A stretch of 64,000 nt of DNA from Acidobacteriota bacterium (GCA_003223245.1 QHYI01000105.1:7913-71912), one strand, 5' to 3'. Shown: positions 3,629-54,439, counted from the first letter of the stretch. Numbers and translations are program-made. The notes: generated by a model not told the origin, from the letters alone.

Positions 3629-4114
3629 TCAGGATTTGGGCGCTTCGGCGGCGGGCGCGGGATGCGCTGCGGCGGGCGCGGGATGCGCTGCAGCGGGCGC
3701 GTGCGCGCCATGCGCACCGGGCGTCACCGCACGCGGGGCCTGCACGTTCCCGGCGCTGCCCGAAAACGGCAGCAACGCGATGTTGCGCGCGCGCTTGATG
3801 GCCACGCCTAATCCGCGCTGATGCCGCGCGCAGACCCCCGTCATGCGGCGGGGCAGAATCTTGCCGCGTTCCTGCAGGAACTGCGCGAGAATGTCCGCGC
3901 GTTTGTAGTCGATGAAGTCCATCTTCTCCACGCAGAATTTGCACACTTTCTTCTTGCGAAAATACTGCCGCTTGCCGCGGGGCCGTCCGCCTGGGCCCGC
4001 AGCTCCTCCGGCTCCGGCCTGAGCAGCGCCGCCCGGCGTGCTCTCGCGCCGTCCCCCGCCTTCGCGTCGCGGAGCGCCGCCTGACGCTGGTGCTTGTTTC
4101 TGTTCCTCTGCCAT
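3629..4114 (-). CDS. rpsR: 30S ribosomal protein S18 with low-complexity N- and C-terminal extensions
   Basis: The core is [65 protein letters not shown] prefer the ATG at 4114 (preceded by AAAGGGTG) to the GTG at 4123 in the ORF track. Confidence 0.9.
3651..3700 (-). repeat. 21-bp in-frame tandem repeat (about 2.5 copies) inside the 3' end of rpsR
   Basis: gcgggcgcgggatgcgctgcg (3651-3671) is followed by gcgggcgcgggatgcgctgca (3672-3692) and then a partial gcgggcgcgtgcgcg. It encodes the [14 protein letters not shown] tail. Confidence 0.9.
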
Positions 4115-4206
4115 GCTTATCACCCTTTCCGATTACCACCCGGCCAAGCCGGGAATGCATCTCTTTCTCGAATCGCTCTACCAGAATCTCGAAAGCGTCA
4201 CCAGAA

Positions 4207-4720: not shown

Positions 4721-5320
4721 CTACACGGCCTCTTCCGGTTCTTCTCCCGACGGGGGCTTGCGGCGGTTGTATTTCGTCATCGCCGCGTCTAAGCCCTGCG
4801 TCAGAATCATCTCAACGGCGTCGCCAGCCTCGCCTACCATTTCCGCTGCGACCTCCAGTTCCGCCTTCTTCATGGGCCGCAGCACGTGCTCTCTGCGGCT
4901 GCTTAGCCGATGTTCAAGTCCGCAGCCGAGCCGCAGCCTCGCAAATTTCTGAGTTCCGACGGCGTTAATCACTGACCGCGCGCCGTTGTGGCTCCCCGCG
5001 CTGCCGTCCGCATGAATCCGAATCGTGCCGAGCGGCAGTTGCACTTCATCCCACATCACCAACAGTGCGTCCACATGCAGTTCGTACTTCGCGAGCAGCT
5101 CTCTCACCGAGATGCCGCTCAGATTCATGTACGTCTGCGGCTTGGCCAGGAGCACTTCTTCCCTGGCTACCTTTCCGCGGCCTACCAGCGCCCGGCCTTC
5201 CGGCCGCTCGACGCGAATCCCATTGCGATTGGCCAGTTCGTCCACCACCATGAAACCCAGGTTGTGCGGCGTCCACTGGTATTCCGGATCGGGATTCCCA
5301 AGTCCGACAATGAGCCGCAT
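4721..5320 (-). CDS. pth: Peptidyl-tRNA hydrolase
   Basis: 199 aa with MRLIVGLGNPDPEYQWTPHNLGFMVVDELA and GSHNGARS. Confidence 0.95.
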   Translation of the reverse strand: MRLIVGLGNPDPEYQWTPHNLGFMVVDELANRNGIRVERPEGRALVGRGKVAREEVLLAKPQTYMNLSGISVRELLAKYELHVDALLVMWDEVQLPLGTIRIHADGSAGSHNGARSVINAVGTQKFARLRLGCGLEHRLSSRREHVLRPMKKAELEVAAEMVGEAGDAVEMILTQGLDAAMTKYNRRKPPSGEEPEEAV

Positions 5321-5365
5321 AAGGTGTCACTACGCCTGCCGAAGCACAGCAAGAAGGGCTCCGCT

Positions 5366-5400
5366 CGTGAGTCGTGATTGGTGACTCGTGACTGGTGACG
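5366..5400. repeat. Five tandem heptamers (SGTGAYK) in the rplY-pth spacer
   Basis: The sequence reads cgtgagt cgtgatt ggtgact cgtgact ggtgacg, directly from the DNA. Confidence 0.85.
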
Positions 5401-5428
5401 CCAACATGACTTCCAGCCCACCCCATCC

Positions 5429-6181
5429 TTATTTCTTTTCTTTCTTCTCCGCCTTCTCGGGCTTCTCTGCCTTCTCGGCCTTGGGCTGTGCTTCCGCAGC
5501 TTGCGCGCCTTCTTCGCCTTCGACTTCTTTCTTGCCCTTCTTGATGACTTCGGGCTCGGCCGGAGCTGCCCCTTCCGCTGCCACCGCTTCCGCAGGCTTC
5601 TCTTCCTCGACCTTGAGCGCCACGACGTGAGCGATGACGCGCTCCGGTTCGGTGAGAAGTTTGATCTTGGCTGGGTCAATTTGCAGCTCGCCCACGCGCA
5701 ATTGCTTGCCGAGCATCAGCTCGCTGACGTCCATGCGGAATTCCGTGGGGATGTCGCTCGGCAGGCATTCCACTTCCACTTCGCGCGTGACAACTTCAAA
5801 CACGCCGCCCTGCACTTTGACGCCGGCCGGCTCACCAAAGGTGTGCACCGGAACCTTGACTTTCATGCGCACGTCCATCGCTACGCGCATGAGGTCGACG
5901 TGCAGGAGTTTTCCGGTGGCCGGATCCACCAGCCAGTCTTTCAGGATGGCCGGCTCTGGCTTGCCTCCGAGCTTCACTTGAAACAGGGTGTTGTGCCCGG
6001 TCGACGAGCGCAGGATGGCGCTCACTTGCTTGGCGTTCACCGACAGCGTAACCGGAGCGGCCTTGCCGCCGTACAAAACCGCCGGAACTTGCCCGGTCTG
6101 GCGCAGCCGCCGCGCTTCGTTCTTGCCCCGCGTGGCGCGGGGCGCGCCTTCTACTACGACTCCCTCTGCTCGATCTGCCAT
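5429..6181 (-). CDS. rplY: 50S ribosomal protein L25 / general stress protein Ctc with a Lys/Glu/Ala-rich C-terminal tail
   Basis: 250 aa with RATRGKNEARRLRQTGQVPAVLYGG. The tail is AEKAEKPEKAEKKEKK. Confidence 0.9.
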   Translation of the reverse strand: MADRAEGVVVEGAPRATRGKNEARRLRQTGQVPAVLYGGKAAPVTLSVNAKQVSAILRSSTGHNTLFQVKLGGKPEPAILKDWLVDPATGKLLHVDLMRVAMDVRMKVKVPVHTFGEPAGVKVQGGVFEVVTREVEVECLPSDIPTEFRMDVSELMLGKQLRVGELQIDPAKIKLLTEPERVIAHVVALKVEEEKPAEAVAAEGAAPAEPEVIKKGKKEVEGEEGAQAAEAQPKAEKAEKPEKAEKKEKK

Positions 6182-6276
6182 GGCCTTCTTCCCTTCTTCT
6201 GAACTTAAACTTTTTGGCGCCTAATTGCTCGAACCTGCGTGTCTGGGGCGCAGCATGCTGCGCCGGAGCTCGTCAA

Positions 6277-22510: not shown

Positions 22511-23755
22511 CTACTTGCCGGACCAGCGCCGGAAAATGAGCGCGGCGTTGGTGCCGCCAAATCCAAAAGAATTCGAGAGTGCGTACTCGACCGACGCTTT
22601 GCGCGCATGTTTGGGCACGTAATCCAGATCGCATTCCGGATCGGGATTTTCCAGATTAATCGTGGGCGGCAGCGTCTGATCGCGCAGTGCCAGCACGCTG
22701 ATGCCAGCTTCGAGTCCACCCGCGCCGCCGAGCAAGTGACCGGTCATCGATTTCGTTGAGCTAACGGGCACCTTCTTGGTGCGCTCACCGAAAACGCGCT
22801 TCAGAGCGCGCGTTTCGATGATGTCACCGATAGGCGTGGAAGTCCCGTGGGCGTTTACGTAACCAATGTCATTAGGGGAGAGCTTGGCGTCCTTGAGCGC
22901 CACCTTCATTACGCGATACGCGCCATCGCCGTTCTCTTCCGGCTGCGTCATGTGATACGCGTCGCCAGACATGCCGTAGCCGACGATTTCGGCCAGAATC
23001 GGCGCGTTGCGCTTCTGCGCATGTTCGAGGGACTCAAGTATCAGAATACCTGCGCCTTCGCCGACGACGAAGCCGTCGCGGCCGGCGTCCCAAGGACGGC
23101 TGGCATGTTGAGGATCGTCATTGCGGGTAGAGAGCGCCTTCATGGCAGCAAAGCCGCCGATGCCCATGGGCGTTACGGTGGCTTCCGAGCCGCCACAAAT
23201 CATCATCTCCGCGGCGCCGCGCTCGATAATTTTGAACGAGTCGCCAACGGCATGCGCGGAAGCAGAGCACGCTGTAGCCGTCGCGGAATTCGGCCCTTTC
23301 GCGCCATAGCGAATCGAAATCTGCCCCGAGGCGAGATTCACAATGGCAGAAGGAATGAAAAAGGGAGAAATCTTGCCCGGGCCGCCGTTCAGCAGCTTCC
23401 CGTGCTCGCGCTCGATGATATCGAACCCGCCGATGCCGGAAGAAACGTACACGCCCACTTCATCGAGATTGGAATCTTCGGGTTTCCAGTTGGCCGACTT
23501 CACCGCAAAATCCGCGCTGGCCAGCGCGATCTGGATGAAGCGCGCCATCTTCTTCAATTCTTTTTTTTCGATCCAGTTAAAAGGGTCGAAGTTCTTCACT
23601 TCGCCCGCGATTTTGCAATCGAATCCGGTCGCGTCAAATTGCGTGATCGGCGCAATCCCGCTGCATCCGGCAACGAGGTTCCTCCAGCATTCCTCCGTGC
23701 CGATGCCCAGCGCGCAGACCAGCCCAACACCCGTGACGACTACCCGGCGAGTCAA
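22511..23755 (-). CDS. fabF: 3-oxoacyl-ACP synthase II
   Basis: 414 aa with RRVVVTGVGLV, ATACSASAHA (active-site Cys), NAHGTSTP and GHLLGGAG. Confidence 0.95.
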   Translation of the reverse strand: MTRRVVVTGVGLVCALGIGTEECWRNLVAGCSGIAPITQFDATGFDCKIAGEVKNFDPFNWIEKKELKKMARFIQIALASADFAVKSANWKPEDSNLDEVGVYVSSGIGGFDIIEREHGKLLNGGPGKISPFFIPSAIVNLASGQISIRYGAKGPNSATATACSASAHAVGDSFKIIERGAAEMMICGGSEATVTPMGIGGFAAMKALSTRNDDPQHASRPWDAGRDGFVVGEGAGILILESLEHAQKRNAPILAEIVGYGMSGDAYHMTQPEENGDGAYRVMKVALKDAKLSPNDIGYVNAHGTSTPIGDIIETRALKRVFGERTKKVPVSSTKSMTGHLLGGAGGLEAGISVLALRDQTLPPTINLENPDPECDLDYVPKHARKASVEYALSNSFGFGGTNAALIFRRWSGK

Positions 23756-23793: not shown

Positions 23794-24036
23794 TTACTTA
23801 CCTTTGGCGTGTTTGTCGATATATTCGACCGCGTCTTTCACCGTAGTCATTTTTTCGGCGTCTTCGTCCGGCACTTCGATGCCGAAGGCTTCCTCAAACG
23901 CCATTACCAATTCTACCTGATCGAGCGAGTCGGCTCCTAAATCGTCCACAAACGAAGCTGTGGGCGTAACTTCCGCTTCATCCACGCCGAGCTGCTCGAC
24001 GATAATCTGCTTCACGCGTTCTTCTACGCTAGCCAT
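23794..24036 (-). CDS. acpP: Acyl carrier protein
   Basis: 80 aa with the phosphopantetheine site [18 protein letters not shown]. The RBS is GGAGGAAAG. Confidence 0.95.
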
Positions 24037-24232
24037 CCTTCTTTCCTCCGCGATTCTAAGTCAGTGTCAGTGCTTTTTATTCCGCTGATCCCAGGCTGAA
24101 GAGCCTGCCCTGCCTGCGCGGAGTACAGCCGCGCGAAAATGGTGTTTTCGAACCCGTACTCTCGGATTCGCGGCTGGCGGCCGCGGTTACGTGCCGATTT
24201 CGCTTGATAATGGGGCCCTGAATAACCTGCCC

Positions 24233-24261
24233 ATTCTAGTCAGGGCACCTTGCAAGGTCAA
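24233..24261 (-). promoter_or_regulatory. Sigma70-type promoter upstream of acpP
   Basis: The minus strand reads TTGACC, a 17-nt spacer, then TAGAAT, about 195 nt upstream of the acpP ATG. Confidence 0.45.
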
Positions 24262-24531
24262 CTTTCAGGCCCCGAAGATTCCCCATGAAAGGTAGTGGCG
24301 TCGATGATTCCACCCCAACCCTTTCCAGCAATATAGTGGGCTATTCCTTCAAAGAGCAGGTCGTCAGGATTTCGTCTCCGTCTAAGTCATAGAATCGCAG
24401 CTTCAAACCTTCCTGCAATCCGATTCCCGCTTCTTTCAAATCTTCGAAACTACCCTTGGCAAAGGGGCTCCCGTCACCGTTGCTTGGCGGATACAAATAG
24501 AGTCTACCGTGCTTCTCTGGAAGCTTGTTAA

Positions 24532-24636
24532 GCCGCCGTTGACATCGAGGACGTGGCCGGTGATGCAGCCGGCTTCGTCGCTCGCGAGAAAAACAATGGC
24601 GGCAGCTGCCGCGCTGGCATCTCCGTACTCCTGATT
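24532..24636 (-). pseudogene. 3'-terminal remnant (35 codons) of a FabG-like short-chain dehydrogenase
   Basis: It translates to [35 protein letters not shown]. The intact FabG C-terminus is [33 protein letters not shown]. By hand alignment, 24 of 33 aligned residues are identical. The DNA of 24532-24608 aligns with 26332-26408. Confidence 0.8.
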
Positions 24637-26163
24637 TTAGGTGATCGACTTCGAGCGCTCCACTGGCGCACTCGGCCCTTGGGGATGGATGTACATCGCC
24701 GCCGTGTCAATGGTCTTTAGCTCCGGCTGCGGCAGGCCCATGGGATAGCGCACTTCGCGCTGGTGGTCGGCGAATTGCCGCTTGTAGTTGTACACGCTGT
24801 TGAACTTCCACAGCATTTTGACGAAATTCGTCTGGCCACGCGCCAGAAATCCGAGCGAGAGACCAAGGGTGCGCCCCAAAGCGACCCAACCCATGAATTT
24901 CTTGTTTAAGACTTCCTGGGTTTGTAAAAGTTGGCGATAGAACTCTTGGAGCGGGAGCTTGGTCGGCAGCACCGCGTGTTGTACATCGAAGAGCCGGTAG
25001 TCCCGCGTCGTAAACTGGCGCGACTCGCTAAGCCAGGTCTCTGTGCCGGGATAGGGGGTGTTCACCGTGATGTGCACAATTTCCGGCACCGACAGCGCCC
25101 ATTCTCGCACCACAGCAAAGCGTTGTTCATCCCAACTCGGGTCAGCGATGATGTTGATGGCAGCGAACATGCCGAGGTCGCGAGCGCATTTGAGCGCTTC
25201 CAGATTCTTGTTGAGCGTGATGCGTTTCCGGTGCTCTTTCAGCCCTTCTTCGTCAATCGCTTCAATGCCTAGAAACATGTATTCCAACCCGAGCCGTTTC
25301 CAATACCGAAAAACCTCTTTGTTGCGCAAAAGCACGTCTCCGCGCGTTTCCAGGTAATAGTGTTTCTTGATGCCCCGCCGCTCGATTTCGCGAGCAATGG
25401 CGTAACCGTGGTCCGCGTAAATGAACGCGACGTCGTCTACGATAAACACGCCGGGTTCCCGGATGCTCGCCAGATCCTCGGCGGCCGCTTCCGGGCTGCG
25501 CTGACGGTAGCTCCGCCCATAAAACGTCCACGCGCTGCAGAAGACGCAATCCCAGGGACAGCCCCGCGTGAATTCAATCGAGGCAGCCGGGTCGAGCACG
25601 CCGATAAAATATTTTCGCCGCCTCGGCAAGAGATCGCGCGCAGGATGCAATTCGTCTAAGCTTGCGATCATCTCAGGCGCGGGTCCTGCTCCCGTTAGTG
25701 TCACGATGCCCGGCAGTTTGTGAATGCTGTCGCGATTCTCTCCCGCCCGCTCCAGCAATCTCGGGGTAATGCCCTCGCCTTCTCCTTTCACGACGCAATC
25801 GAGCGCCCCACCAGCGTGCTCTAGAATCTCCTTCGCTGTGAAGGACGCGCTGTGCCCCCCGGCAAACAGAAAAGCCTCAGGCAATAGTTGACGCGTGGCC
25901 TGTACTAAATCCACCACTTCAGGAATGTTGGCCAGGTAATTCAGCGAATAGCCGATGGCCTCCGGCCGCCAGTCCCGAACGATGCGGAAATAGTCTTTTT
26001 GGCTGCTCGCTTGAAGATCCAAGAGGCGGACGTCATATGCGCTTTTGCGGCAAGCGGCGGCCACAAGCTCGAGTCCCAGCGGCTCAAGCCGCAGGTACAC
26101 TTCCGAGTACATCAAGGAGCTGGGATGTACAAGAAGAACCCGGTGGATTTCCCGCGAATGCAT
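24637..26163 (-). CDS. B12-binding-domain radical SAM protein (class B; HpnR-like hopanoid/lipid methylase is one possibility, unverified)
   Basis: 508 aa. The N-terminus VLLVHPSSLMYSEVYLRLEPLGLELVAAACRKSAYDVRLLDLQ resembles a cobalamin-binding Rossmann fold. The radical SAM cluster motif is TRGCPWDCVFCSAW (CxxxCxxC). Confidence 0.9.
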   Translation of the reverse strand: MHSREIHRVLLVHPSSLMYSEVYLRLEPLGLELVAAACRKSAYDVRLLDLQASSQKDYFRIVRDWRPEAIGYSLNYLANIPEVVDLVQATRQLLPEAFLFAGGHSASFTAKEILEHAGGALDCVVKGEGEGITPRLLERAGENRDSIHKLPGIVTLTGAGPAPEMIASLDELHPARDLLPRRRKYFIGVLDPAASIEFTRGCPWDCVFCSAWTFYGRSYRQRSPEAAAEDLASIREPGVFIVDDVAFIYADHGYAIAREIERRGIKKHYYLETRGDVLLRNKEVFRYWKRLGLEYMFLGIEAIDEEGLKEHRKRITLNKNLEALKCARDLGMFAAINIIADPSWDEQRFAVVREWALSVPEIVHITVNTPYPGTETWLSESRQFTTRDYRLFDVQHAVLPTKLPLQEFYRQLLQTQEVLNKKFMGWVALGRTLGLSLGFLARGQTNFVKMLWKFNSVYNYKRQFADHQREVRYPMGLPQPELKTIDTAAMYIHPQGPSAPVERSKSIT

Positions 26164-26208
26164 GATGCCCCCCGCGCGTCACCACCCCTTGGACTAGCTG
26201 GCGGTATC

Positions 26209-26237
26209 ATTACAAAATCTTCGAGTTGCCTTGTCAA
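26209..26237 (-). promoter_or_regulatory. Near-consensus sigma70 promoter dedicated to the radical SAM gene
   Basis: The minus strand reads TTGACA, a 17-nt spacer, then TGTAAT. It lies between the fabG stop (26315) and the rSAM ATG (26163). Confidence 0.5.
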
Positions 26238-26314
26238 CGGCCGCCCGCAAGGCGTGTCGCCCTGCAAGCCTGCCGTACGACAATTCGCCTAGCCGCTTTA
26301 CTCGCCTAATTTTG

Positions 26315-27061
26315 TCACGCCATGTACATACCGCCGTTCACGTCCAGGACGTGGCCGGTGATGTAGCCGGCTTCGTCGCTCGCAAGAAAAACAACGGCCG
26401 CGGCGACGTCGCGTGGACAGCCCATGCGGCCCAGCGGAATGCGCGTCTTTAAATCTTCTTTCACTTTGTCGGGAAGCACGCCGGTCATCGGCGTTTTGAT
26501 AAAGCCGGGCGCGACGGCATTCACGGTGATATTGCGCGAAGCGATTTCGATGGCGATGGCTTTCGTCAAGCCTATCAGACCAGCTTTGGCGGCGACGTAA
26601 TTCGCCTGGCCCGCGTTACCCATTTGTGCCACCACCGAGGCGATGTTGACGATGCGGCCCCGCCGCGCGCGCACCATGGTCAGAAGAGCTTGCTGAATGC
26701 ACAAATGCGCGCCGGTCAGGTTCGTGCGAATCACCGCGTCCCAATCCTCCGCCTTCATGCGCATGGCCAAGCCGTCGCGCGTAATCGCCGCGTTGTTCAC
26801 CAGAATATCGAGGCGGCCGAATTTCTCGACGACGGCTTTGAATCCCGCCCTGACCTGTTCCGCATCCGCCACGTCCATCTTCACCGCGAACGCTTCTTCG
26901 CCTGCCGCGGTAATCTCTTTCACCAGCGCCGCGAGCTTCTCTTCATTGCGCGCAGCCACGGCGACTTTGGCGCCTGCTTCCGCAAGCGCCAGCGCCGTGT
27001 CGCGCCCAATGCCCTGCGACGCGCCGGTCACCAGAGCTACTTTGTCTTTCAAGCGGAACAT
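26315..27061 (-). CDS. fabG: 3-oxoacyl-ACP reductase
   Basis: 248 aa with [20 protein letters not shown] and YVAAKAG. Confidence 0.95.
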
Positions 27062-27176: not shown

Positions 27177-28130
27177 CTATGCCGCGTCGGAACGCGCTGC
27201 AGCGATTTTTTCCACGGTCACCGCGAGGCTCTTTTCGTCCTCGACGTTGAGAGCCGCGACCGAACGTTCGATCTGTCGCAGCAACCCCGTGAGCACGCGG
27301 CCCGGGCCGACTTCCACACAGGTGTTCACGCCTTCATCGATGAGCAGGCGCACCGATTCTTCCCAGCGCACCGGCATGGAAACCTGCCGAATGAGCGCCT
27401 CCCGCGCTTCGCTGCCAGTGGTGATGGTATCTGCGTCGACGTTGGTCACCAGCGGCACGCGCAAGTTCGAAAACTCTGTGGCTCGCAAGTCTTGCTCGAG
27501 TTTCTGTTGCATCGGTGCCATCAACGCGGAATGAAACGGCGCGGAAACCGGGAGGATCACGGCGCGCTTCGCGCCCGCTTGCGACGCCAACTCCACGGCT
27601 CGCTTCACCGCGCCCGCGTGGCCGGAGATCACCGTCTGTTCCGGTGAATTCAAATTCGCCGGCGCGCAAATTTCGCCATTGCCGGCGCGCTTGCACACAT
27701 CCGCCACCACCGCGTGAGACAAGCCCATAATCGCGGCCATGCCGCCCACGCCCTGCGGAACCGCATCTTGCATGTACGTGCCGCGCTTGCGCACGAGCCT
27801 CACGGCGTCGGCAAACTTCAACGATCCGGCGCAAACCAGCGCGGAATATTCGCCAAGACTATGGCCTGCTACATAATCCGGCTCCAAGCCTTTTTCCTCC
27901 AGGACGCGAGTTGCCGCCACCGAGCAAGTTAAGATGGCTGGCTGCGTATTGGCAGTGAGCTTCAGGTCTTCTTCGGTGCCCTCGAAGCACAGCTTGGAAA
28001 CCGAAAAACCCAGCGCTTTGTCCGCTTCGTCGAAGACCGCTCTGGCCGCGGCATACTTTTCCGCGAGTTCTTTGCCCATGCCGGGATATTGTGAAGCTTG
28101 TCCAGGAAACACAAATGCGACTTTACCCAT
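27177..28130 (-). CDS. fabD: Malonyl-CoA:ACP transacylase
   Basis: MGKVAFVFPGQASQYPGMG...GHSLGEYSALV. The 437-aa ORF-track form is a 5' over-extension into plsX. The real ATG is at 28130. Confidence 0.95.
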   Translation of the reverse strand: MGKVAFVFPGQASQYPGMGKELAEKYAAARAVFDEADKALGFSVSKLCFEGTEEDLKLTANTQPAILTCSVAATRVLEEKGLEPDYVAGHSLGEYSALVCAGSLKFADAVRLVRKRGTYMQDAVPQGVGGMAAIMGLSHAVVADVCKRAGNGEICAPANLNSPEQTVISGHAGAVKRAVELASQAGAKRAVILPVSAPFHSALMAPMQQKLEQDLRATEFSNLRVPLVTNVDADTITTGSEAREALIRQVSMPVRWEESVRLLIDEGVNTCVEVGPGRVLTGLLRQIERSVAALNVEDEKSLAVTVEKIAAARSDAA

Positions 28131-28153: not shown

Positions 28154-29161
28154 TCACGCGGGAACCGCAGTGGCGGAGAGCTCTTGTTCGATTCTTTCGT
28201 TGAGGCGCGCGCGGGCGAGCCCCGCGGCCACACGGATGGCGTTTTTCACCGCATTGGCATTGGAACGTCCATGGCCAATCACGCAGACGCCGCGCACACC
28301 CAAAAGCGGCGCGCCACCATACTCCGTATAATCGATCTTCCTCTTCAAGCCTTTGAACGCCCCTTGCGAAAGCTTTGCCCCGACCTGCGAAAGAATCGAG
28401 CTTTTCAGCGACTTCTTCAGCAAATCGAAGATCGAAACCGCCAGACCTTCGCAAATCTTCAAAGCGATGTTGCCTACGAAACCATCGCACACAATCACGT
28501 CCACGCTGCCGGAAAAAAGATCTCCGCCTTCGACGTTCCCTACGAAATGCACCGGACTCTTCTTCAGCAGAGTATAGACCTCGCGGGTCAGCACGTTGCC
28601 CTTGATTTCTTCCTCCCCCACCGAGAGCAGGCCCACACGCGGGCGCCGGTTGCCAAACGTGGCGCGGTAATACACTTCACCCATCACCGCAAACTGCACC
28701 AGATGCTCCGGCCGCGAATCCACATTCGCCCCCACGTCCAGCAGCACCGAAACGCCGCCTCTCGCGTTGGGAAAGGGCGCTGCCAGGGCCACGCGGTCCA
28801 CGGACTCAAGCGTGCCGAGAATGAACTTCGCCGCGGTCATGACCGCGCCGGTATTTCCGGCGCTGAGCATGCCATCGGCCTTGCCATCATGAACCAGTCG
28901 CGCCGCCACGTGCACGGAGCTGTCCTTCTTTCGCCGGAAAGCCTGCGCCGGGTGATCGTTCATGGTGATCACTTCGCTTGCCGGCACAATCTCAATCGGC
29001 AGATTGGGCACGGAGTGCTTGGCCAGTTCGGCGCGCACCGCGTTCGGCTGCCCCACCAGCAAAATGCGCACGTTGAACTCGCGTGCGGCCAGCACACTGC
29101 CTTCCACTTCAGGACGTGGTGCATGGTCCCCGCCCATGGCGTCAACGGCGATGGTGATCAT
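28154..29161 (-). CDS. plsX: Phosphate acyltransferase PlsX
   Basis: 335 aa beginning MITIAVDAMGGDHAP. Confidence 0.95.
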   Translation of the reverse strand: MITIAVDAMGGDHAPRPEVEGSVLAAREFNVRILLVGQPNAVRAELAKHSVPNLPIEIVPASEVITMNDHPAQAFRRKKDSSVHVAARLVHDGKADGMLSAGNTGAVMTAAKFILGTLESVDRVALAAPFPNARGGVSVLLDVGANVDSRPEHLVQFAVMGEVYYRATFGNRRPRVGLLSVGEEEIKGNVLTREVYTLLKKSPVHFVGNVEGGDLFSGSVDVIVCDGFVGNIALKICEGLAVSIFDLLKKSLKSSILSQVGAKLSQGAFKGLKRKIDYTEYGGAPLLGVRGVCVIGHGRSNANAVKNAIRVAAGLARARLNERIEQELSATAVPA

Positions 29162-29199: not shown

Positions 29200-29376
29200 T
29201 TATGCCGACGCTTGTACCGCCTTGCCCTTATAGTAGCCGCAATGCGGGCACGCCTGGTGCGGCAGCTTCATTTCCTGGCAATTCGGACATTTGCCCAGCC
29301 CGGGCTTGGTCAGAAAATCATGCGCCCGCCGCGTGCTGGTCCGTCTTTTGGAATGCCTCCGTTTTGGGTTAGGCAT
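29200..29376 (-). CDS. rpmF: 50S ribosomal protein L32
   Basis: MPNPKRRHSKRRTSTRRAH...CPNCQEMKLPHQACPHCGYY. Start refined to 29376. Confidence 0.9.
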   Translation of the reverse strand: MPNPKRRHSKRRTSTRRAHDFLTKPGLGKCPNCQEMKLPHQACPHCGYYKGKAVQASA

Positions 29377-29437: not shown

Positions 29438-29980
29438 CTATTGTTTTTTCAACCAGTCCTGCTTGAGACGCGCGAGTGAGGCCCATCGGGGATCTGTGGC
29501 GTGGGTCTCACAGCGGCAGTCCTCGTGGTTCAGGTTGGCGCCGCAATTCGGGCACAGCCCCCGGCAATCGCTCTGGCAAATGGCTTTGATGGGAAGCGCC
29601 AGAAGCACTTGCTCTTTCAACACGTCCGCCAAGAAAAGGCCATCTCCTTCGTAAAATCCGATCTCCGTATCATCATCCTTCAGCCGGTCTTCGCGATGCT
29701 TGGTGAGGCTGGCATCGTTCGGAAGCGGCGCATAAAGCAGGTCAAACGAGCGGCTTACTTCCTCGTTGACCGGTTCGAGGCAGCGCGCGCAGACCAATTC
29801 GATCTTCGTCTCGAAGTTGCCCTCGACGCGAATCTGGCCCTCCAGTAATTCCGCGGTAGCCGTCACTTCGAGCGGCTCAATCTGCTTCATTTCTACCGAA
29901 TGGAAATCGATGCTGCCCGGCGCATAGGTCTTGTGGATTCGCAGCTTCCGGACAGCTAATTCCTTTACGTCCAGGAACAT
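29438..29980 (-). CDS. yceD: YceD/DUF177 family protein
   Basis: 180 aa with C-terminal CQSDCRGLCPNCGANLNHEDCRC. It sits in the canonical position upstream of rpmF-plsX. Confidence 0.85.
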   Translation of the reverse strand: MFLDVKELAVRKLRIHKTYAPGSIDFHSVEMKQIEPLEVTATAELLEGQIRVEGNFETKIELVCARCLEPVNEEVSRSFDLLYAPLPNDASLTKHREDRLKDDDTEIGFYEGDGLFLADVLKEQVLLALPIKAICQSDCRGLCPNCGANLNHEDCRCETHATDPRWASLARLKQDWLKKQ

Positions 29981-30815: not shown

Positions 30816-33095
30816 ATGCGCGCGACTCTGAAAATCGTCCTGCCCCTGATCGTGAGCGTCGCCAGCGTGTCTCTTGTTTTCGCCGGTTACCAGGTAAGGA
30901 ACCAGCGGCGTATCTTGCGCAACGATCTCGCGCGGCGGGCGGAAATCCTGGCCGATAGCCTCCAGGAGAGCATCGAGCGGGAACTTGGCCGGGGCCAGGA
31001 CCGCGGCCTGCGCCGTTTCGTCGAGCGCTATGGGCAACGCGAGCACCTCCGAGGAATTGCTATCTACGATACAGGAGACCATTTGCTTGCCATTACTCCG
31101 GGACTTGAGCCAGCCTTGCCGCTGCACCCAACCGCCATAACCAAAGCCATGCACGACGATCATGGCGATGGCGAATTTCTTCCCCCTGAACAGACCTCGG
31201 CACAACAGGAAAGCGATGCCCTTCCCGTGCACGTTTATGCGATGCCGCTTCACCGGGACAACAAAGTCGTCGGAGCCCTCCTCCTGGTGCACGACACCGG
31301 CTACATTGAAATACAAGTCGCACACACCCTGCGTGACGCCCTTCTCAACGCTCTGGTGCAAACGCTGTTGATTAGCGCCCTGGCGCTGCTTCTTGTGCGC
31401 TGGACTTTTACCGGACCTCTCACGCGCACCGCCAAATGGGTCCGCACATTGCGCACCGGCCAACCCAATCCGCATCCGGCACTGTTGCAAGGCGGAGCCA
31501 TGGAGCAGTTGCACCATGAGGTTACCCACTTGGCCCGAGACTTACATTCGGCAAGGACGGCGGCCGAAGTCGAAGCGCGGCTCCGCGATTCCAACGCCTC
31601 GCTGTGGACCGCGGAACGGCTGAGCGTCAATCTTCGCGAACGGCTTCAAAACCAGCCGCTTTTTGTGGTTTCGAATCGTGAGCCCTACATGCACGTCTTC
31701 GACGGGAAGGACATCAAGGTGATCGTGCCCGCCAGCGGCGTGGTCACCGCCCTCGAGCCGGTTTTGCTGGCGTGCAACGGCACATGGGTCGCGAGTGGCT
31801 CCGGCAGCGCGGACCGCGAAGTCGTCGATTCCCAGGACCGGCTCCGCGTCCCTCCGGATCGTCCGAGTTATACGCTCCGTCGCATCTGGCTTACGGAAGA
31901 GGAAAACAAAGGCTATTACGATGGATTTTCGAATGAGGGCCTCTGGCCGCTTTGCCATATCGCCCATACGCGCCCAATTTTCCGCCCCGAAGACTGGCTG
32001 CAATACCAGCGGATCAACCAGCGGTTTGCCGACACCGTCTTGCAAGAAATGGCAGACGCGGATTCGCCCATTCTGCTGGCGCAGGACTATCATCTTGCAC
32101 TCGTTCCGCGCATGGTGAAGGATGTCCGCCCGGACGCGCGCGTGGCTATCTTCTGGCACATCCCCTGGCCCAACGCAGAGGTCTTCGGAATTTGCCCTTG
32201 GCAGCGCGAACTCATCGAAGGATTGCTGGGCGCGGATCTCATCGGCTTCCATATTCAAACCCATTGCAACAATTTCCTTGAAACCGTGGACCGCGGTCTC
32301 GAAGCGCTCACCGAATGGGACCGCTTTGCGGTAAGCCGCCAAGGCCACGTTACCCGAGTGCGGCCCTACCCGATTAGCGTGGAGTTTCATGAAAAACCCA
32401 GCCTGGAACCAAATATCGCCAACAGGCTGCGCGCGGAATTGTGCGACGAGATGGACATTGAAGCTACGCATCTGGGAGTCGGGGTGGATCGTGTCGATTA
32501 CACCAAAGGAATCCTGGAGCGGTTCCGCGCCTTGGAAAGGTTTTTCGAACTGAATCCGGGTTACTGCCGGCGGTTCACCTTCGTGCAGATCGGCGCGCCC
32601 AGCCGGACCGACATCGACCGCTACAGGAATTTGCTCGAGGAAGTCAATTCTGAGGCGGAGCGCATCAACGACCGCTTCCAAACGTCGCGGTGGAAGCCCA
32701 TCGTGTTTCGCGGGAAACACCATTCCCACGAGGAAATTTCCCGTTTCTACAAGGCGGCCTCCTTCTGCATGGTCACTTCCCTGCACGATGGGATGAACCT
32801 GGTGGCCAAGGAATTTGTGGCTTCCCGGGAAGATGAACGCGGCGTATTGATCCTGAGCACGTTTGCCGGTGCAGCGCACGAACTGAGTGATGCGCTGCTC
32901 GTGAATCCTTACGACATTTCGCAGGTCGCGCGAGCTATTCATCGCGCGCTGGAAATGCCAGAGAGAGAGCAGACCGAGCGAATGCAGCACATGCGCCACA
33001 TTGTGCGGCAACACAATGTATACCGCTGGGCCGCGCACCTTCTCTTCGATCTGACTGAGATTCGTATCGAACTGGTGGAGCGCGCAGAAGCCTAG
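30816..33095 (+). CDS. otsA: Trehalose-6-phosphate synthase (GT20) fused to an N-terminal two-TM sensor/HAMP-like module
   Basis: The GT20 part starts near residue 265 ([12 protein letters not shown]...[15 protein letters not shown]...[11 protein letters not shown]). The N-terminus has TM1 ([18 protein letters not shown]), a loop of about 150 aa, TM2 ([13 protein letters not shown]) and a HAMP-like linker. The RBS is AAGGAG. Confidence 0.85.
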
Positions 33096-33184: not shown

Positions 33185-33844
33185 TTGAACGCCGCCGAAA
33201 CACCGTTCGATTTCGTCACCGCTTCCTACCTCACCCGGATTGGAAATCACTCGGCGGAAAACCTCGCGGAATTGCTGACTGGGCTCGAACATTGCAACGA
33301 CGCCTCCATTTTTCACCACACCTTTCAAACGCTGGGCTTCCACCACTTCCTCACGGAAGGCTTTTCCAACGATTTCGCGCAGTGGACGCTGGCCTCCCTG
33401 AACCGAACTGACCTTGCCGAGCAACTGGCCAGCCTCGACATCCGTGATTACCTTTCGATTGCAGCGCTACGAAGCGATCTTCGCCGCGTAGTCCGGGATT
33501 TTTGCGACGCTCAGCCGCAATTCGCGTCGCAATCCGGCCTCGAGCGATTTCACTTCTGCGAGAGCGTGGAAGTGACCGTGCCTTTTGGCCGCTGTGCGCA
33601 CACCCTGGGTGAATTTCGCGAAGGCGTTGCGCATCTCAGCCACGCCAGTTTTTATTTTCACTTCATTTCCTCGCGGCTGCGCCTCCAACTCCAAACCAAT
33701 GACTTTTCCTATTGGCTCTCCGGCAGTCTAGGCCTTCGGACGCTCGCTGACAGCATCAATCGCATCGACGTCTACACGAACACGCTCGACAGCGCCCGCG
33801 CCAAGATGCTCCGCCTGATCGACCGCGAAAGGAGAAACCCATGA
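33185..33844 (+). CDS. Conserved hypothetical protein, possibly the DUF5752-type partner of TreT-like synthases (from memory only)
   Basis: 219 aa with a TTG start. Its stop overlaps the ATG of the next gene (ATGA). The composition is His/Phe-rich and cytosolic-looking. Confidence 0.55.
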   Translation: MNAAETPFDFVTASYLTRIGNHSAENLAELLTGLEHCNDASIFHHTFQTLGFHHFLTEGFSNDFAQWTLASLNRTDLAEQLASLDIRDYLSIAALRSDLRRVVRDFCDAQPQFASQSGLERFHFCESVEVTVPFGRCAHTLGEFREGVAHLSHASFYFHFISSRLRLQLQTNDFSYWLSGSLGLRTLADSINRIDVYTNTLDSARAKMLRLIDRERRNP

Positions 33845-35067
33845 CGGAAGTCTTGGCGCCAAGCCGGATTCCTCTGGAAAACTATGTCGGGGTCGTAGGC
33901 GCGGGCGAGATCGAGGAATTGCGCGCGCTGGCCAAGCCCCTGCGCGGCCGCAGCATGGAGATGATCAACTCCACGGCTGTGGGAGGCGGCGTTGCGGAAA
34001 TTCTCAACCGTCTGGTACCGCTGGCCGAAGAACTCGAGCTGGCCATGCGTTGGGACGTGATGAAAGGCGCGGAAGAATTTTTCGACGTCACGAAATCTTT
34101 CCACAATGCCTTGCACGGCGAGCCGTATCTCCACAAGTCCAAGGATTTTGAGATTTTTCTCTCCTACAACGAGCGGAATCGCGCCAACCTTCCGCTCGAT
34201 GCCGAATTCATGGTCATTCATGACCCACAGCCGGTCGCGCTGATTGACGCTCGGCCGCCCGGTTCCAATCACTGGGTTTGGCGGTGCCACATTGATTTGT
34301 CGCATCCGAACCGCGAGGTCTGGAACTTTTTGGAGAAATTCGTTTCCCGCTATGACGCGGCCATGTTCTCTTCTCCCGAATTTTCGCGCCAGCTCTCTAT
34401 CTCGCAATACCTTTTCTACCCCGCCATTGACCCGCTTTCCGAAAAGAACTGCCCTCTCGATCCGGAATTGATCGAGCAAGTTCTCGACCGCTATCAGATT
34501 GATCCGCAGCGGCCCATCCTGACGCAAATCTCCCGCTTCGACCGCTTGAAGGATCCCGTGGGCGTCATTCGCGCGTATCGCATCGTGAAGCGTTACTTCG
34601 ACTGCCAGTTGGTTCTCGCTGGCGGCAGCGCGTCCGACGATCCGGAAGGCGCTCTGGTTCTGAAGGATGTCCTGCGCGCGGCCGACAAAGACCCCGATAT
34701 CAAGATCCTCGAACTCCCTGCATGGGCCCCTTTGGAAGTGAACGCGCTGCAGCGCGCTTCGACGATTGTCGTGCAGAAAAGTTTGCGTGAAGGGTTCGGC
34801 CTGACTGTTTCAGAGGCGCTATGGAAAAAGAAGCCCGTCGTAGCTTCCGCCGTCGGCGGCATTCCCACGCAAATCATTCACAAGCACACCGGCTTGTTGG
34901 CGTACTCCGTCGAAGGCACTGCTTATCAAATCCGTTTTTTGCTTTCCCACCCGGAGATCGCCGCGAAGCTCGGAGAAAACGGCCACCAGCACGTAAAGGA
35001 AAACTTCCTCATCACGCAAAAACTGAAGCGCTACCTCGCTTTGTTCCTGCTCCTCGACCGGAGCTAA
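33841..35067 (+). CDS. treT: TreT-like trehalose (glycosyl-transferring) synthase, GT4 family
   Basis: 408 aa with INSTAVGGGVAEILNRLVPLAEELELAMRWDVMKG..EFFDVTKSFHNALHG and a C-terminal GT-B EGFGLTVSEALWK. Confidence 0.75.
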   Translation: MTEVLAPSRIPLENYVGVVGAGEIEELRALAKPLRGRSMEMINSTAVGGGVAEILNRLVPLAEELELAMRWDVMKGAEEFFDVTKSFHNALHGEPYLHKSKDFEIFLSYNERNRANLPLDAEFMVIHDPQPVALIDARPPGSNHWVWRCHIDLSHPNREVWNFLEKFVSRYDAAMFSSPEFSRQLSISQYLFYPAIDPLSEKNCPLDPELIEQVLDRYQIDPQRPILTQISRFDRLKDPVGVIRAYRIVKRYFDCQLVLAGGSASDDPEGALVLKDVLRAADKDPDIKILELPAWAPLEVNALQRASTIVVQKSLREGFGLTVSEALWKKKPVVASAVGGIPTQIIHKHTGLLAYSVEGTAYQIRFLLSHPEIAAKLGENGHQHVKENFLITQKLKRYLALFLLLDRS

Positions 35068-40384: not shown

Positions 40385-40402
40385 AAAGGAAGGGTGTTTG
40401 AG

Positions 40403-41281
40403 ATGACCAAGAGCAAGAGCCAAGGATTTTCACTCCTAGAGCTGATGGTTAGCATCGCGGTGCTGGTCACCATCTGTGGCGCGCTGTTTTCCGCCTTATT
40501 CGCTTATCAAAAGACCTACGCGTCGGAAATGCTGAAAGCCGATATGCGCCTGGGAGTGCAGGGCGCCGCAGAAACCTTGGCTCAGGAAATCGGCCAGGCT
40601 GGCGCCGTGCCGCCTACCACCACCACGCTTACGGGGAGCATCACGGCAAGCGCGCTGGCCCAAAGCGCTAGCGTAATCTCAACCGCAAATATGTTTGCTG
40701 GCGAAACCTTGCAAGTCGACCAGGGCCCCACTTATGAGACCGTCAAAATCGCCAGCGTATCCAGCTCCACAACCATCAGTGCCATCTTCAACAGCAATCA
40801 CGCCGCGGGAGCTCTGGTTTGGGCTAGCGGCGTCTTTCCCCAAGGCATCCTTAGTTCTTCGACGGCCAACGTGTTACAGCTTTTTGGAGATATCAACAGC
40901 GACGGAACCCTGGCCTACGAAGAGTATAGGTGCGACATGACAGCGGGAACGCTCACGCGGTCCATTACGCCTGTCGGAGCCGGCGAAAGGAATGCCGCCG
41001 TGGTGGTCCTTCAAGGAGTTATCGCAAATCCAGGCGGGACACCGTGCTTTACCTATGCCGCTCCTGTGTCTGCGGCAGGCTTCAACTTCATCACCAACGT
41101 GGGGTTCACCGTGACGACTCAAACCTCGGACCCCGACCCACAGACTGGCCAATATGCCACGATGACCAAATCTTTCTTGGATCTCGCGCCGCGGAACGTC
41201 AAGGCCGGCTTGGCTCTGGCGCAAGGCGGCTACACCGCCCCATTGCAGGCCACGCCTCCGGGCCTGCCCATGAGTCCATGA
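40403..41281 (+). CDS. PilW-like minor pilin
   Basis: It has the prepilin motif QGFSLLELMVSIAVLV. Confidence 0.7.
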   Translation: MTKSKSQGFSLLELMVSIAVLVTICGALFSALFAYQKTYASEMLKADMRLGVQGAAETLAQEIGQAGAVPPTTTTLTGSITASALAQSASVISTANMFAGETLQVDQGPTYETVKIASVSSSTTISAIFNSNHAAGALVWASGVFPQGILSSSTANVLQLFGDINSDGTLAYEEYRCDMTAGTLTRSITPVGAGERNAAVVVLQGVIANPGGTPCFTYAAPVSAAGFNFITNVGFTVTTQTSDPDPQTGQYATMTKSFLDLAPRNVKAGLALAQGGYTAPLQATPPGLPMSP

Positions 41282-41315
41282 GAATCGTTTGTTTGGAGGA
41301 AAAGGGCGAGGCTTC

Positions 41316-42758
41316 ATGAAAACGACCACAGTCAAAAGGAACAACGAACAGGGCATAGGGCTGCTGGTTGCCTTAATGACCCTCATGCTGCTCTCCACGA
41401 TGGTCGCGGGCCTGCTCATGGTGACCAATACGCAGCTCTGGACTACCTTGAATCACCGGCTGGCGACTCAGGCCCGCTACGCGGCCGAATATGGCGCTCA
41501 GCGGGCAGCCGTATGGATCGCTAACACCGATCTCAAGATGAACGACACTACCGGCCTCAACACCGGGGTTTATCCGGTCCAGCTTACCGCCGACAATCAG
41601 GCCGTGGTCCTGTCCGCGATGTCCGCTGTGACTGCGAACTATCCCGATTCCTCAGTTCGGACCGGCTTCAATACGGCGCTCTCCAATCAACCCGTCCCGG
41701 GATTGACAAATTTCAAGTATTCGACGTATGCCACCTTGGTGTCTATGACTCCAGCTGCGGCCGCTGGAACCGCTATGTACCAGCAGACGTGGCAGATTAC
41801 CTCGCAAGCCAGTATCGTGGGCCTGCGCAACGCCCAAGTTCAAGTCGTCGAGAACATCCAGCGCATGGTGGGCGTACCGCTGTTCCAATATGCGATCCAA
41901 AGCACAGGCAACGGCTGCGGCGCCCTCACCCTTGCGGGCGGCGCCAGCACCGACAGCTATGATTCATCTGCCGGAACCTATGCCTCGACCAATACGGCTG
42001 CCGGTGGAAACATCGAAGCCAATGGCAACGTCAGCCTCAGCGGCAGTAGCACAGAGGTGGAAGGAAATCTCTACGACCCGAATCCGACCGGAACAAGCTG
42101 CAGTTCGGGTAGCGTCGATGCCCTTACCGTCGGTGGCGGCGCCAGTGTGACAGGAAGCGTTACTACGATAGGCGCCCCTTTGACCGTTCCAACGCCGCCC
42201 GCGCCAAGTCCCGTCCCGCCGACAACGAATGAACCTTTTACTGGCAACTGCGGCGGCGGAGCCGGGTGTACGAATCTGTCGGCCGATAACCTGGCGCTTG
42301 CCCCGGGAACGTATGGAAACATCAGTGCCAGCGGCGGCACTTCCCTGCACCTTTCTGCGGGCACCTATAATCTGAACAGTCTCACGCTCAGCGGCGGAAG
42401 CTCCCTGGTCATCGACTCAGGCCCAGTCATTGTCAACATCGGGGGTGCAGGCATACGCGCACCAATTACCTTTAGCGGTGGCAGCATAACTAACAATAGC
42501 GGGCTCGCCGCAAACCTCCAGATTAATTACGGGGGAACCGGTGCCGTGGATCTGTCCGGAGGAGCGGCGAGCTATGCATTGGTCGACGCTCCCAACGCAG
42601 CGATCACTTTCAGCGGCGGCTCGAATTGGTATGGGTCGGTCATCGGCAAAACCGTGAACGACAGTGGCGGCACTGCCGTCCACTTTGACCGCAGCCTCCT
42701 TGTCACCATCACCAATGGCAAATTCCAGATCGTCGGATTCAACTGGAGCAAATTCTAA
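41316..42758 (+). CDS. PilX-N-domain protein with a large Gly/Ser/Thr-rich repetitive C-terminal domain
   Basis: The N-terminus is NEQGIGLLVALMTLMLLSTMVAGLLMV...ARYAAEYGAQ. The C-terminal ~300 aa carry repeated GGxS/T...xxSGG units, which look beta-helix-like. Confidence 0.7.
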   Translation: MKTTTVKRNNEQGIGLLVALMTLMLLSTMVAGLLMVTNTQLWTTLNHRLATQARYAAEYGAQRAAVWIANTDLKMNDTTGLNTGVYPVQLTADNQAVVLSAMSAVTANYPDSSVRTGFNTALSNQPVPGLTNFKYSTYATLVSMTPAAAAGTAMYQQTWQITSQASIVGLRNAQVQVVENIQRMVGVPLFQYAIQSTGNGCGALTLAGGASTDSYDSSAGTYASTNTAAGGNIEANGNVSLSGSSTEVEGNLYDPNPTGTSCSSGSVDALTVGGGASVTGSVTTIGAPLTVPTPPAPSPVPPTTNEPFTGNCGGGAGCTNLSADNLALAPGTYGNISASGGTSLHLSAGTYNLNSLTLSGGSSLVIDSGPVIVNIGGAGIRAPITFSGGSITNNSGLAANLQINYGGTGAVDLSGGAASYALVDAPNAAITFSGGSNWYGSVIGKTVNDSGGTAVHFDRSLLVTITNGKFQIVGFNWSKF

Positions 42759-54365: not shown

Positions 54366-54439
54366 TGGAGGCGCGGGGCGGAATCGCACCGCCGCTAAAG
54401 GTTTTGCAGACCTTCGCCTTGCCACTTGGCTACCGCGCC
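54366..54439 (-). tRNA. tRNA-Cys (anticodon GCA), CCA encoded
   Basis: The minus strand reads GGCGCGG-TA-GCC-AAGTGGCAA-GGC-G-AAGGT-CTGCAAA-ACCTT-TAGC-GGCGG-TGCGATT-CCGCC-CCGCGCC-T-CCA, a 74-nt cloverleaf. It has U33, A37 and the U73 discriminator typical of tRNA-Cys. Confidence 0.85.

Follow-up and report, generated by a model that had tools for sequence, protein, structure and literature searches.

A predicted hopanoid C-3 methylase gene, hpnR, between fabG and acpP in a Candidatus Acidoferrum-like soil acidobacterium

The prototype of HpnR, the hopanoid C-3 methylase, is that of Methylococcus capsulatus (Welander and Summons 2012, as cited in PMC5462960 and PMC13459092). Like the hopanoid C-2 methylase HpnP, HpnR is by proposal a canonical B12-dependent radical S-adenosylmethionine (SAM) methylase, and its mechanism is biochemically unstudied (PMC13459092). 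Among cultured Acidobacteria, hpnR was found only in Candidatus (Ca.) Koribacter versatilis, whose cultured strain Ellin345 makes methylated bacteriohopanepolyols; the distribution of the gene is patchy, and horizontal transfer has been proposed (PMC5462960). Here we describe a gene, X, in a 64,000-nucleotide (nt) stretch of DNA (the window) from an Acidobacteriota bacterium (GCA_003223245.1 QHYI01000105.1:7913-71912). X lies between fabG and acpP in a fatty-acid synthesis (fab) cluster. A first-pass annotation of the window had described X as a class-B (cobalamin-dependent) radical SAM gene of a lipid-modifying branch, had proposed from its proximity to acpP that it modifies acyl chains, and had left open whether it is an HpnR orthologue.

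The open reading frame (ORF) of X has 508 codons. Pfam placed a B12-binding domain (PF02310) at residues 20-136 (78.7 bits, E = 4e-22) and a Radical_SAM domain (PF04055) at residues 196-354. The cluster motif, C202-x3-C206-x2-C209, reads TRGCPWDCVFCSAW, and its cysteines are invariant in a nine-sequence alignment of homologues. These domains and the motif bear out the class-B assignment, together with the 508-amino acid (aa) ORF, the cobalamin-binding-like N-terminus and the CxxxCxxC motif on which it had been based. Public gene calls start X 17 codons later, giving a protein of 491 aa (P0001). Two observations favour the longer form: the alignment to the HpnR profile begins at residue 8, and the codons just past the 508-aa ATG (SREI) are conserved in relatives.

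We compared X with the NCBIfam models. Against TIGR04367 (HpnR_B12_rSAM, an equivalog model with a curated cut-off of 650 bits) X scored 835.5 bits (E = 1e-251), with profile positions 2-489 of 490 aligned. All further models fell far short of their cut-offs: BchE (TIGR02026) reached 150.7 of 481.35 bits, TIGR04072 (ladderane-type lipid biosynthesis B12-binding/radical SAM) 70.3 of 360, and the HpnJ model 55.6 of 578; the HpnP model was absent among the NCBIfam matches of X. BchE, HpnJ, TIGR04072 and HpnP share with X the B12-binding and radical SAM fold class, and HpnP also the hopanoid substrate class predicted for X, whereas X stays far below the thresholds of the first three. Reference HpnRs scored 816 (a Korobacter metagenome-assembled genome, MAG), 867 (Methylomirabilis), 899 (Kozakia baliensis) and 905 bits (Nitrospira) with TIGR04367, so that the score of X falls inside their range.

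Sequence comparison gave the same picture. We found 6060 homologues of X; the nearest non-identical ones are 79-83% identical, and JGI or NCBI labels many of these 'hopanoid C-3 methylase HpnR'. Seven other homologues, six of them called HpnR by a source, share 69-81% identity with X, and the HpnR of the Korobacter MAG (L041) shares 68%. In a plasmid collection a single strong match stood out, the gene annotated as hpnR in the acetic acid bacterium Kozakia baliensis, whose product is 58.6% identical across 99% of X; the next match was at 30.5% identity, leaving a clean gap. The nine-sequence alignment, comprising X and eight HpnRs from several phyla, contains 182 invariant columns, C202, C206 and C209 among them. 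By profile and alignment, then, X is predicted to be an HpnR orthologue, an ordinary member of a known family. The TIGR04367 search thus answers yes to the orthology question, and the HpnR match agrees with the lipid-modifying branch to which X had been assigned.

X resembles described HpnRs in its N-terminal B12-binding domain and in its radical SAM core with CxxxCxxC. It is also, as they are, a stand-alone gene outside hpn clusters with a patchy distribution. It differs in coming from an uncultured Ca. Acidoferrum-like acidobacterium, in its place between fabG and acpP, and in being known from sequence alone. The HpnRs of Ca. Koribacter versatilis Ellin345 (WP_011523840.1) and of the Korobacter MAG are acidobacterial like X, and the latter has a TIGR04367 score near that of X (816 versus 835 bits). 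X is set apart from both by its order, Acidoferrales, and by its genomic context; the window shows no hpnP partner.

The minus-strand genes around X run yceD-rpmF-plsX-fabD-fabG-X-acpP-fabF and are followed by etfB, etfA and an electron-transfer flavoprotein (ETF)-quinone oxidoreductase gene (Table 1). Each of rpmF, plsX, fabD, fabG, acpP and fabF passes a curated NCBIfam equivalog model, and yceD was recognized by PF02620, which upholds the gene order read earlier from the window. Order and orientation are those of the canonical bacterial cluster, yceD-rpmF-plsX-(fabH)-fabD-fabG-acpP-fabF, which has an internal acpP promoter; correspondingly, a separate promoter-like site conserved among relatives precedes acpP in the window. 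In contrast to the canonical cluster, that of the window has no fabH. The fabG-acpP spacer is 2278 bp in the window versus 163-828 bp in related fab loci, because hpnR and debris lie inside it.

Table 1. Features of the fab cluster and of the fabG-acpP slot (positions are those of the window).
Feature	Position	Strand	Basis
yceD-family gene	29438..29980	-	PF02620 on identical contig L081
rpmF (ribosomal protein L32)	29200..29376	-	TIGR01031; 58-aa gene call on identical contig L081
plsX	28154..29161	-	TIGR00182, 367 bits
fabD (malonyl-CoA-ACP transacylase)	27177..28130	-	TIGR00128, 362 bits
fabG (3-oxoacyl-ACP reductase), intact resident copy	26315..27061	-	TIGR01830, 327 bits vs cut-off 297.75
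fabG stop-hpnR start spacer, 151 nt	26164..26314	-	without homology to relatives' post-fabG sequence (blastn, relatives vs window)
TTGACA-17-TGTAAT promoter-like string upstream of hpnR, putative	26209..26237	-	read directly
hpnR (X), predicted 508-aa cobalamin-dependent class B radical SAM methyltransferase	24637..26163	-	ORF, Pfam, TIGR04367
Orphan fabG 3'-end fragment, truncated at both ends	24532..24621	-	direct repeat and relatives' fabG
Lineage-specific filler with frameshifted small-ORF remnant	24275..24531	-	translations; no homology to relatives' spacers
acpP upstream block	24037..24274	-	81.6% identity to L092, L094, L095
acpP (acyl carrier protein, ACP)	23794..24036	-	NF002149, TIGR00517
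fabF (beta-ketoacyl-ACP synthase II)	22511..23755	-	TIGR03150, 642 bits

The fab arrangement with a 100% identical HpnR occurs on at least 10 contigs, which stem from several soil metagenomes independent of one another (ENA, JGI, Logan). Those compared with the window match it at 99.9% identity or more across 2.5-7.6 kb, and the arrangement therefore belongs to a real, near-clonal population and is not an assembly chimera. In one contig of the same population (L085, 960-1694) fabG contains a short stretch that is rearranged or carries an indel, opposite window positions 26599-26659; its gene call is 244 aa and has no recorded Pfam match. The cause may be an artefact of assembly or a variant.

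Among the proteins with 95-96% identity to the FabF of the window, several carry the name Ca. Acidoferrum sp.; Ca. Acidoferrum is an abundant uncultured group of acid soils (PMC7980381). The loci of these FabF relatives have the order yceD-rpmF-plsX-fabD-fabG-acpP-fabF-etfBA at 81-93% nt identity to the window (82.6% for the resident fabG against the fabG of same-genus relatives), and their fabG-acpP gap is 575-620 bp, without hpnR. In a metagenome scan, 51 related loci with both fabG and acpP had spacers of 163-828 bp, and hpnR was found in none of them. The longer spacers hold unrelated small ORFs, encoding a Sel1-repeat protein, lipoprotein-like proteins and others. No intermediate or empty-site allele was seen in the population of the window itself; relatives with 95-96% FabF identity already lack hpnR at this place.

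The window is homologous to its relatives as far as the fabG stop codon and then again from 24274, 13 nt upstream of a promoter-like site, TTGACC-17-TAGAAT, at 24261-24233 (10/12 matches in a promoter scan). This site is followed by a leader of about 195 nt to acpP, which is roughly 82% identical in other species. The conserved block upstream of acpP forms the right-hand boundary of a variable slot. Given the break in homology at the fabG stop and the varying spacers, this slot, which extends from the fabG stop to the acpP promoter, is a hypervariable intergenic site between two apparent transcription units. Across the genus (L092-L095, L099-L178) the slot looks like a hot spot of small-gene gain and loss.

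Judged by these comparisons, hpnR is a secondary insertion into the slot in one species-level lineage of the soil genus Ca. Acidoferrum. The first-pass annotation had already read X as inserted secondarily into a fab locus of otherwise canonical form, and the absence of hpnR from the slot of 51 relatives and the homology break support this. Its placement in the fab operon holds for the physical position; the gene lies between two apparent transcription units, upstream of the conserved acpP promoter, rather than demonstrably within an operon. The composition of hpnR is host-like (GC content 0.574; GC content at third codon positions, GC3, 0.692 versus 0.70-0.75 in most neighbour genes), and neither GC nor GC3 gave a sign of foreign origin. 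The host-like GC3 fits a donor among related Acidobacteria or a long residence.

Debris lies 3' of hpnR. Beginning 15 nt past the hpnR stop, an orphan fragment corresponds to about fabG nt 641-732 of 747, its extent being set by the fabG of relatives, and it still reads as the C-terminus of a short-chain dehydrogenase/reductase. Positions 24533-24606 and 26331-26404 form a direct repeat with 89% identity over 74 nt, 1798 nt apart, far beyond chance, which confirms the FabG-like fragment noticed earlier directly after X. With blastn the fragment is 88% identical over 92 nt to the fabG of L092, one of the relatives; over 81 nt its identity is 84% with the resident fabG and 89% with that of L092. 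Identity rises to 92%, over 75 nt, in the best relatives. The resident copy and 59 relatives are indistinguishable in this respect (84-92%); 81 nt are too few to single out a source. A second fabG copy is absent in all relatives compared. The fragment is best read as a rearrangement footprint; it may be a diverged target duplication, or a piece of the fabG of another acidobacterium that arrived with the cargo.

Between this fragment and the acpP block, the frameshifted remnant on the minus strand of the filler reads ...LKLRFYDLDGDE / DDLLFEGIAHYIAGKGWGGIIDATTFHGES. It has no Pfam match, and no intact counterpart was found among the related loci compared. A hairpin and T-run inside the fabG fragment (24612-24599) was considered as a terminator and rejected, as it folds like shuffled sequence (z = 0.01). 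Terminator-like sites in the region number 5 versus 4.3 in shuffles, which is no excess.

X had also been credited with its own promoter. The string on which this was based is present, with TTGACA at 26237-26232, a 17-nt spacer and TGTAAT at 26214-26209. When one mismatch was allowed, the pattern, which was picked post hoc, matched once in the window versus 0.11 matches expected, and at least one match occurred in 11 of 100 shuffles. The -10 position 2 of sigma-70 promoters is almost always A. The string is not listed in a sigma-70 scan of the window, because that scan requires A at position 2 of the -10 hexamer, where the string has G. The string is thus present but not beyond chance, and a promoter belonging to hpnR itself is possible. 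The region upstream of hpnR has only weak similarity to the regions upstream of hpnR in L001 and L002, the two nearest species-level relatives. In the 151-nt fabG-hpnR spacer our scan of the window found no terminator-like site on the minus strand, and read-through from fabG is therefore equally possible. No riboswitch or other known RNA was found upstream of hpnR or acpP, as Rfam gave no match there even at E up to 1.

We then surveyed the context of hpnR elsewhere, using 80 hpnR loci, one genome per species, mostly from Acidobacteriota with some from Nitrospira, Methylomirabilis, Planctomycetota and Verrucomicrobiota. In these MAG-era data hpnR is present in many Acidobacteriota genomes. When the fab proteins of the window were used as tblastn queries, none of the 80 species-representative loci had fab genes arranged around hpnR as in the window, and none of the closest HpnR relatives (79-83% identity) adjoins fab genes. 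Recurrence of a fabG-radical SAM-acpP order in relatives, which the first-pass annotation had raised, was thus seen in neither direction (0/80 hpnR loci, 0/51 fabG-acpP spacers), and the fabG/acpP position of X was found in no other lineage examined. The neighbours of hpnR differ from locus to locus: an esterase and an aldehyde dehydrogenase in L087, a deaminase and a GalT-like gene in L088-L091, a Rieske oxygenase in L097, an esterase and response regulators in L098, and a major facilitator superfamily (MFS) transporter and DUF genes beside a further near HpnR relative. Clustering of about 430 neighbour ORFs gave no family in more than 10 of 78 hpnR loci, and nothing resembling a hopanoid gene, shc- or hpn-like, was found among these neighbours. 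The differing neighbourhoods and the lack of a common neighbour family suggest that hpnR is a roaming stand-alone gene.

Two further observations came from this survey. In seven Nitrospira loci (L061, 5791-6624, and six others) a gene for a membrane protein with the motif RHPNYFFEWLHW lies two to three genes upstream of hpnR. This protein probably resembles those of the DUF1295 or steroid 5-alpha-reductase type, and its gene could be a neighbour of hpnR with a link to lipids. On a related acidobacterial contig, L157, an apparent hpnR match (3746-4120) near a fabF paralogue (5001-6245) was rejected as a different radical SAM gene, with 31% identity over 127 aa of the HpnR core; L157 has no acpP or fabG match.

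Taken together, these data make it very probable that X is hpnR, carried as single-gene cargo in a tolerant slot and without a functional link to acyl-ACP chemistry. As a self-contained cargo, hpnR would have entered the hypervariable slot, leaving the truncated fabG 3' fragment and decayed filler, and it would have come to lie beside acpP by accident, at a place that tolerates foreign or relocated DNA. Our data show the orthology of X, its domain architecture and its cluster motif; the hopanoid substrate of X and its reaction we infer from family membership. In the proposed reaction, a [4Fe-4S] cluster on CxxxCxxC would reductively cleave one SAM to give a 5'-deoxyadenosyl radical, and this radical would abstract the C-3 hydrogen in the A ring of the hopanoid. 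The substrate radical would then take a methyl group from methylcobalamin bound by the N-terminal B12 domain, and a second SAM would re-methylate the cobalamin. That the host makes hopanoids is an assumption, a reasonable one given how commonly Acidobacteria of subdivisions 1-3 synthesize bacteriohopanepolyols (PMC5462960).

Several points weigh against this reading. No squalene-hopene cyclase (shc) or other hpn domain was found in the 20 large ORFs scanned in the 64-kb window. The placement of X relative to the M. capsulatus clade was gauged by proxies, Kozakia baliensis (58.6%) and Korobacter (68%), and among solved structures, none of which is of an HpnR, the best match to X was at E = 1e-7, with no close relative. 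A preprint (10.1101/2025.07.29.667474) states that knockout validation exists for a single hpnR and that TIGR04367 picks up proteins of a NirJ-like branch as well; because of this warning, the score of X was compared with those of other HpnRs, as given above. As to the route of insertion, the fabG fragment resembles the resident fabG no more than it does the fabG of other species.

Could X be a tailoring enzyme for fatty acids or acyl-ACP, acting in mid-chain methylation or on membrane-spanning lipids and tied to the fab operon and to ACP, as its position had suggested in the first-pass annotation? X does lie physically between fabG and acpP, class-B radical SAM enzymes include modifiers of lipid chains, and X has a weak match to TIGR04072. 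That match, however, is 70.3 bits against a cut-off of 360 and against 835.5 bits for the HpnR model. The fab synteny is found in none of the 80 species-level loci nor in the nearest homologues, 51 relatives have no such gene in the slot, the slot gathers unrelated small genes, and X shows no lineage-specific departure at positions invariant in HpnR. Acyl tailoring is thus extremely unlikely and already largely refuted by the non-conserved synteny, and the proposed acyl-chain or mid-chain methylation role is not sustained by these counts or by the TIGR04367 match. A best match to a family with a proven non-lipid substrate, joined to an unconserved fab context, had been named in advance as speaking against a lipid-tailoring role; the fab context is indeed not conserved, and the predicted substrate, a hopanoid, is non-acyl, yet a membrane lipid.

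It is improbable that X is an enzyme of the HpnR clade with a shifted substrate, another polycyclic triterpenoid or isoprenoid lipid, in a host possibly without bacteriohopanepolyols. An shc gene of the host was not seen among the scanned window ORFs, annotation by profile only has been criticised in view of the single knockout-validated hpnR (10.1101/2025.07.29.667474), and 58.6% identity to the Kozakia baliensis protein is not near-identity to a proteobacterial HpnR. These points are set against high conservation over the full length, with 182 columns invariant among HpnRs from five phyla, a score inside the HpnR range, and the common hopanoid synthesis in Acidobacteria subdivisions 1-3 (PMC5462960). 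That X is a recently acquired passenger, unexpressed or non-functional and heading for decay like the adjacent fragments, is very improbable: a truncated fabG piece and a frameshifted ORF remnant do flank it and its promoter is putative only, but all 508 codons are intact, every family-invariant residue is kept, GC3 is host-like (0.69 versus 0.70-0.75 in most neighbours), and the same allele persists in several soils. We give equally little credence to the idea that X was recruited to methylate a non-hopanoid membrane lipid and was fixed beside acpP by selection for co-expression with fatty-acid synthesis. In a milder form of this idea, the slot would serve Ca. Acidoferrum as a dedicated site for capturing small accessory genes, and transcription running on from the fab genes would express hpnR and so couple the production of 3-methylhopanoids to that of membranes.

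If X is hpnR as single-gene cargo, what is new here is a member of a known family in an unusual, non-conserved position. The locus offers no new chemistry and opens no long-standing question, and automated pipelines would already call X HpnR. It is a concrete example of the patchy movement of hpnR, as single-gene cargo in a tolerant slot with the rearrangement debris still visible. 3-Methylhopanes are geochemical biomarkers, historically for aerobic methanotrophs. Each additional hpnR-bearing lineage weakens the assignment of 3-methylhopanes to methanotrophs, and this locus adds abundant uncultured Ca. Acidoferrum-like soil Acidobacteria to the potential sources of 3-methylhopanoids.

Other features of the window lie outside the fab cluster. 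Two adjacent plus-strand genes at 40394-42758 encode a protein with a prokaryotic N-terminal methylation motif (pilin- or pseudopilin-like) and a protein with DUF7305; N_methyl genes like that of the window flank hpnR in L088 and L089, probably by coincidence. The plus strand also carries an OtsA-like GT20 trehalose-synthesis gene at 30816-33095, whose product has an N-terminal extension of about 280 aa without a Pfam match, and a TreT-like trehalose synthase gene at 33841-35067. A single tRNA gene on the minus strand (54369-54439) is the sole Rfam match in the window at the gathering threshold.

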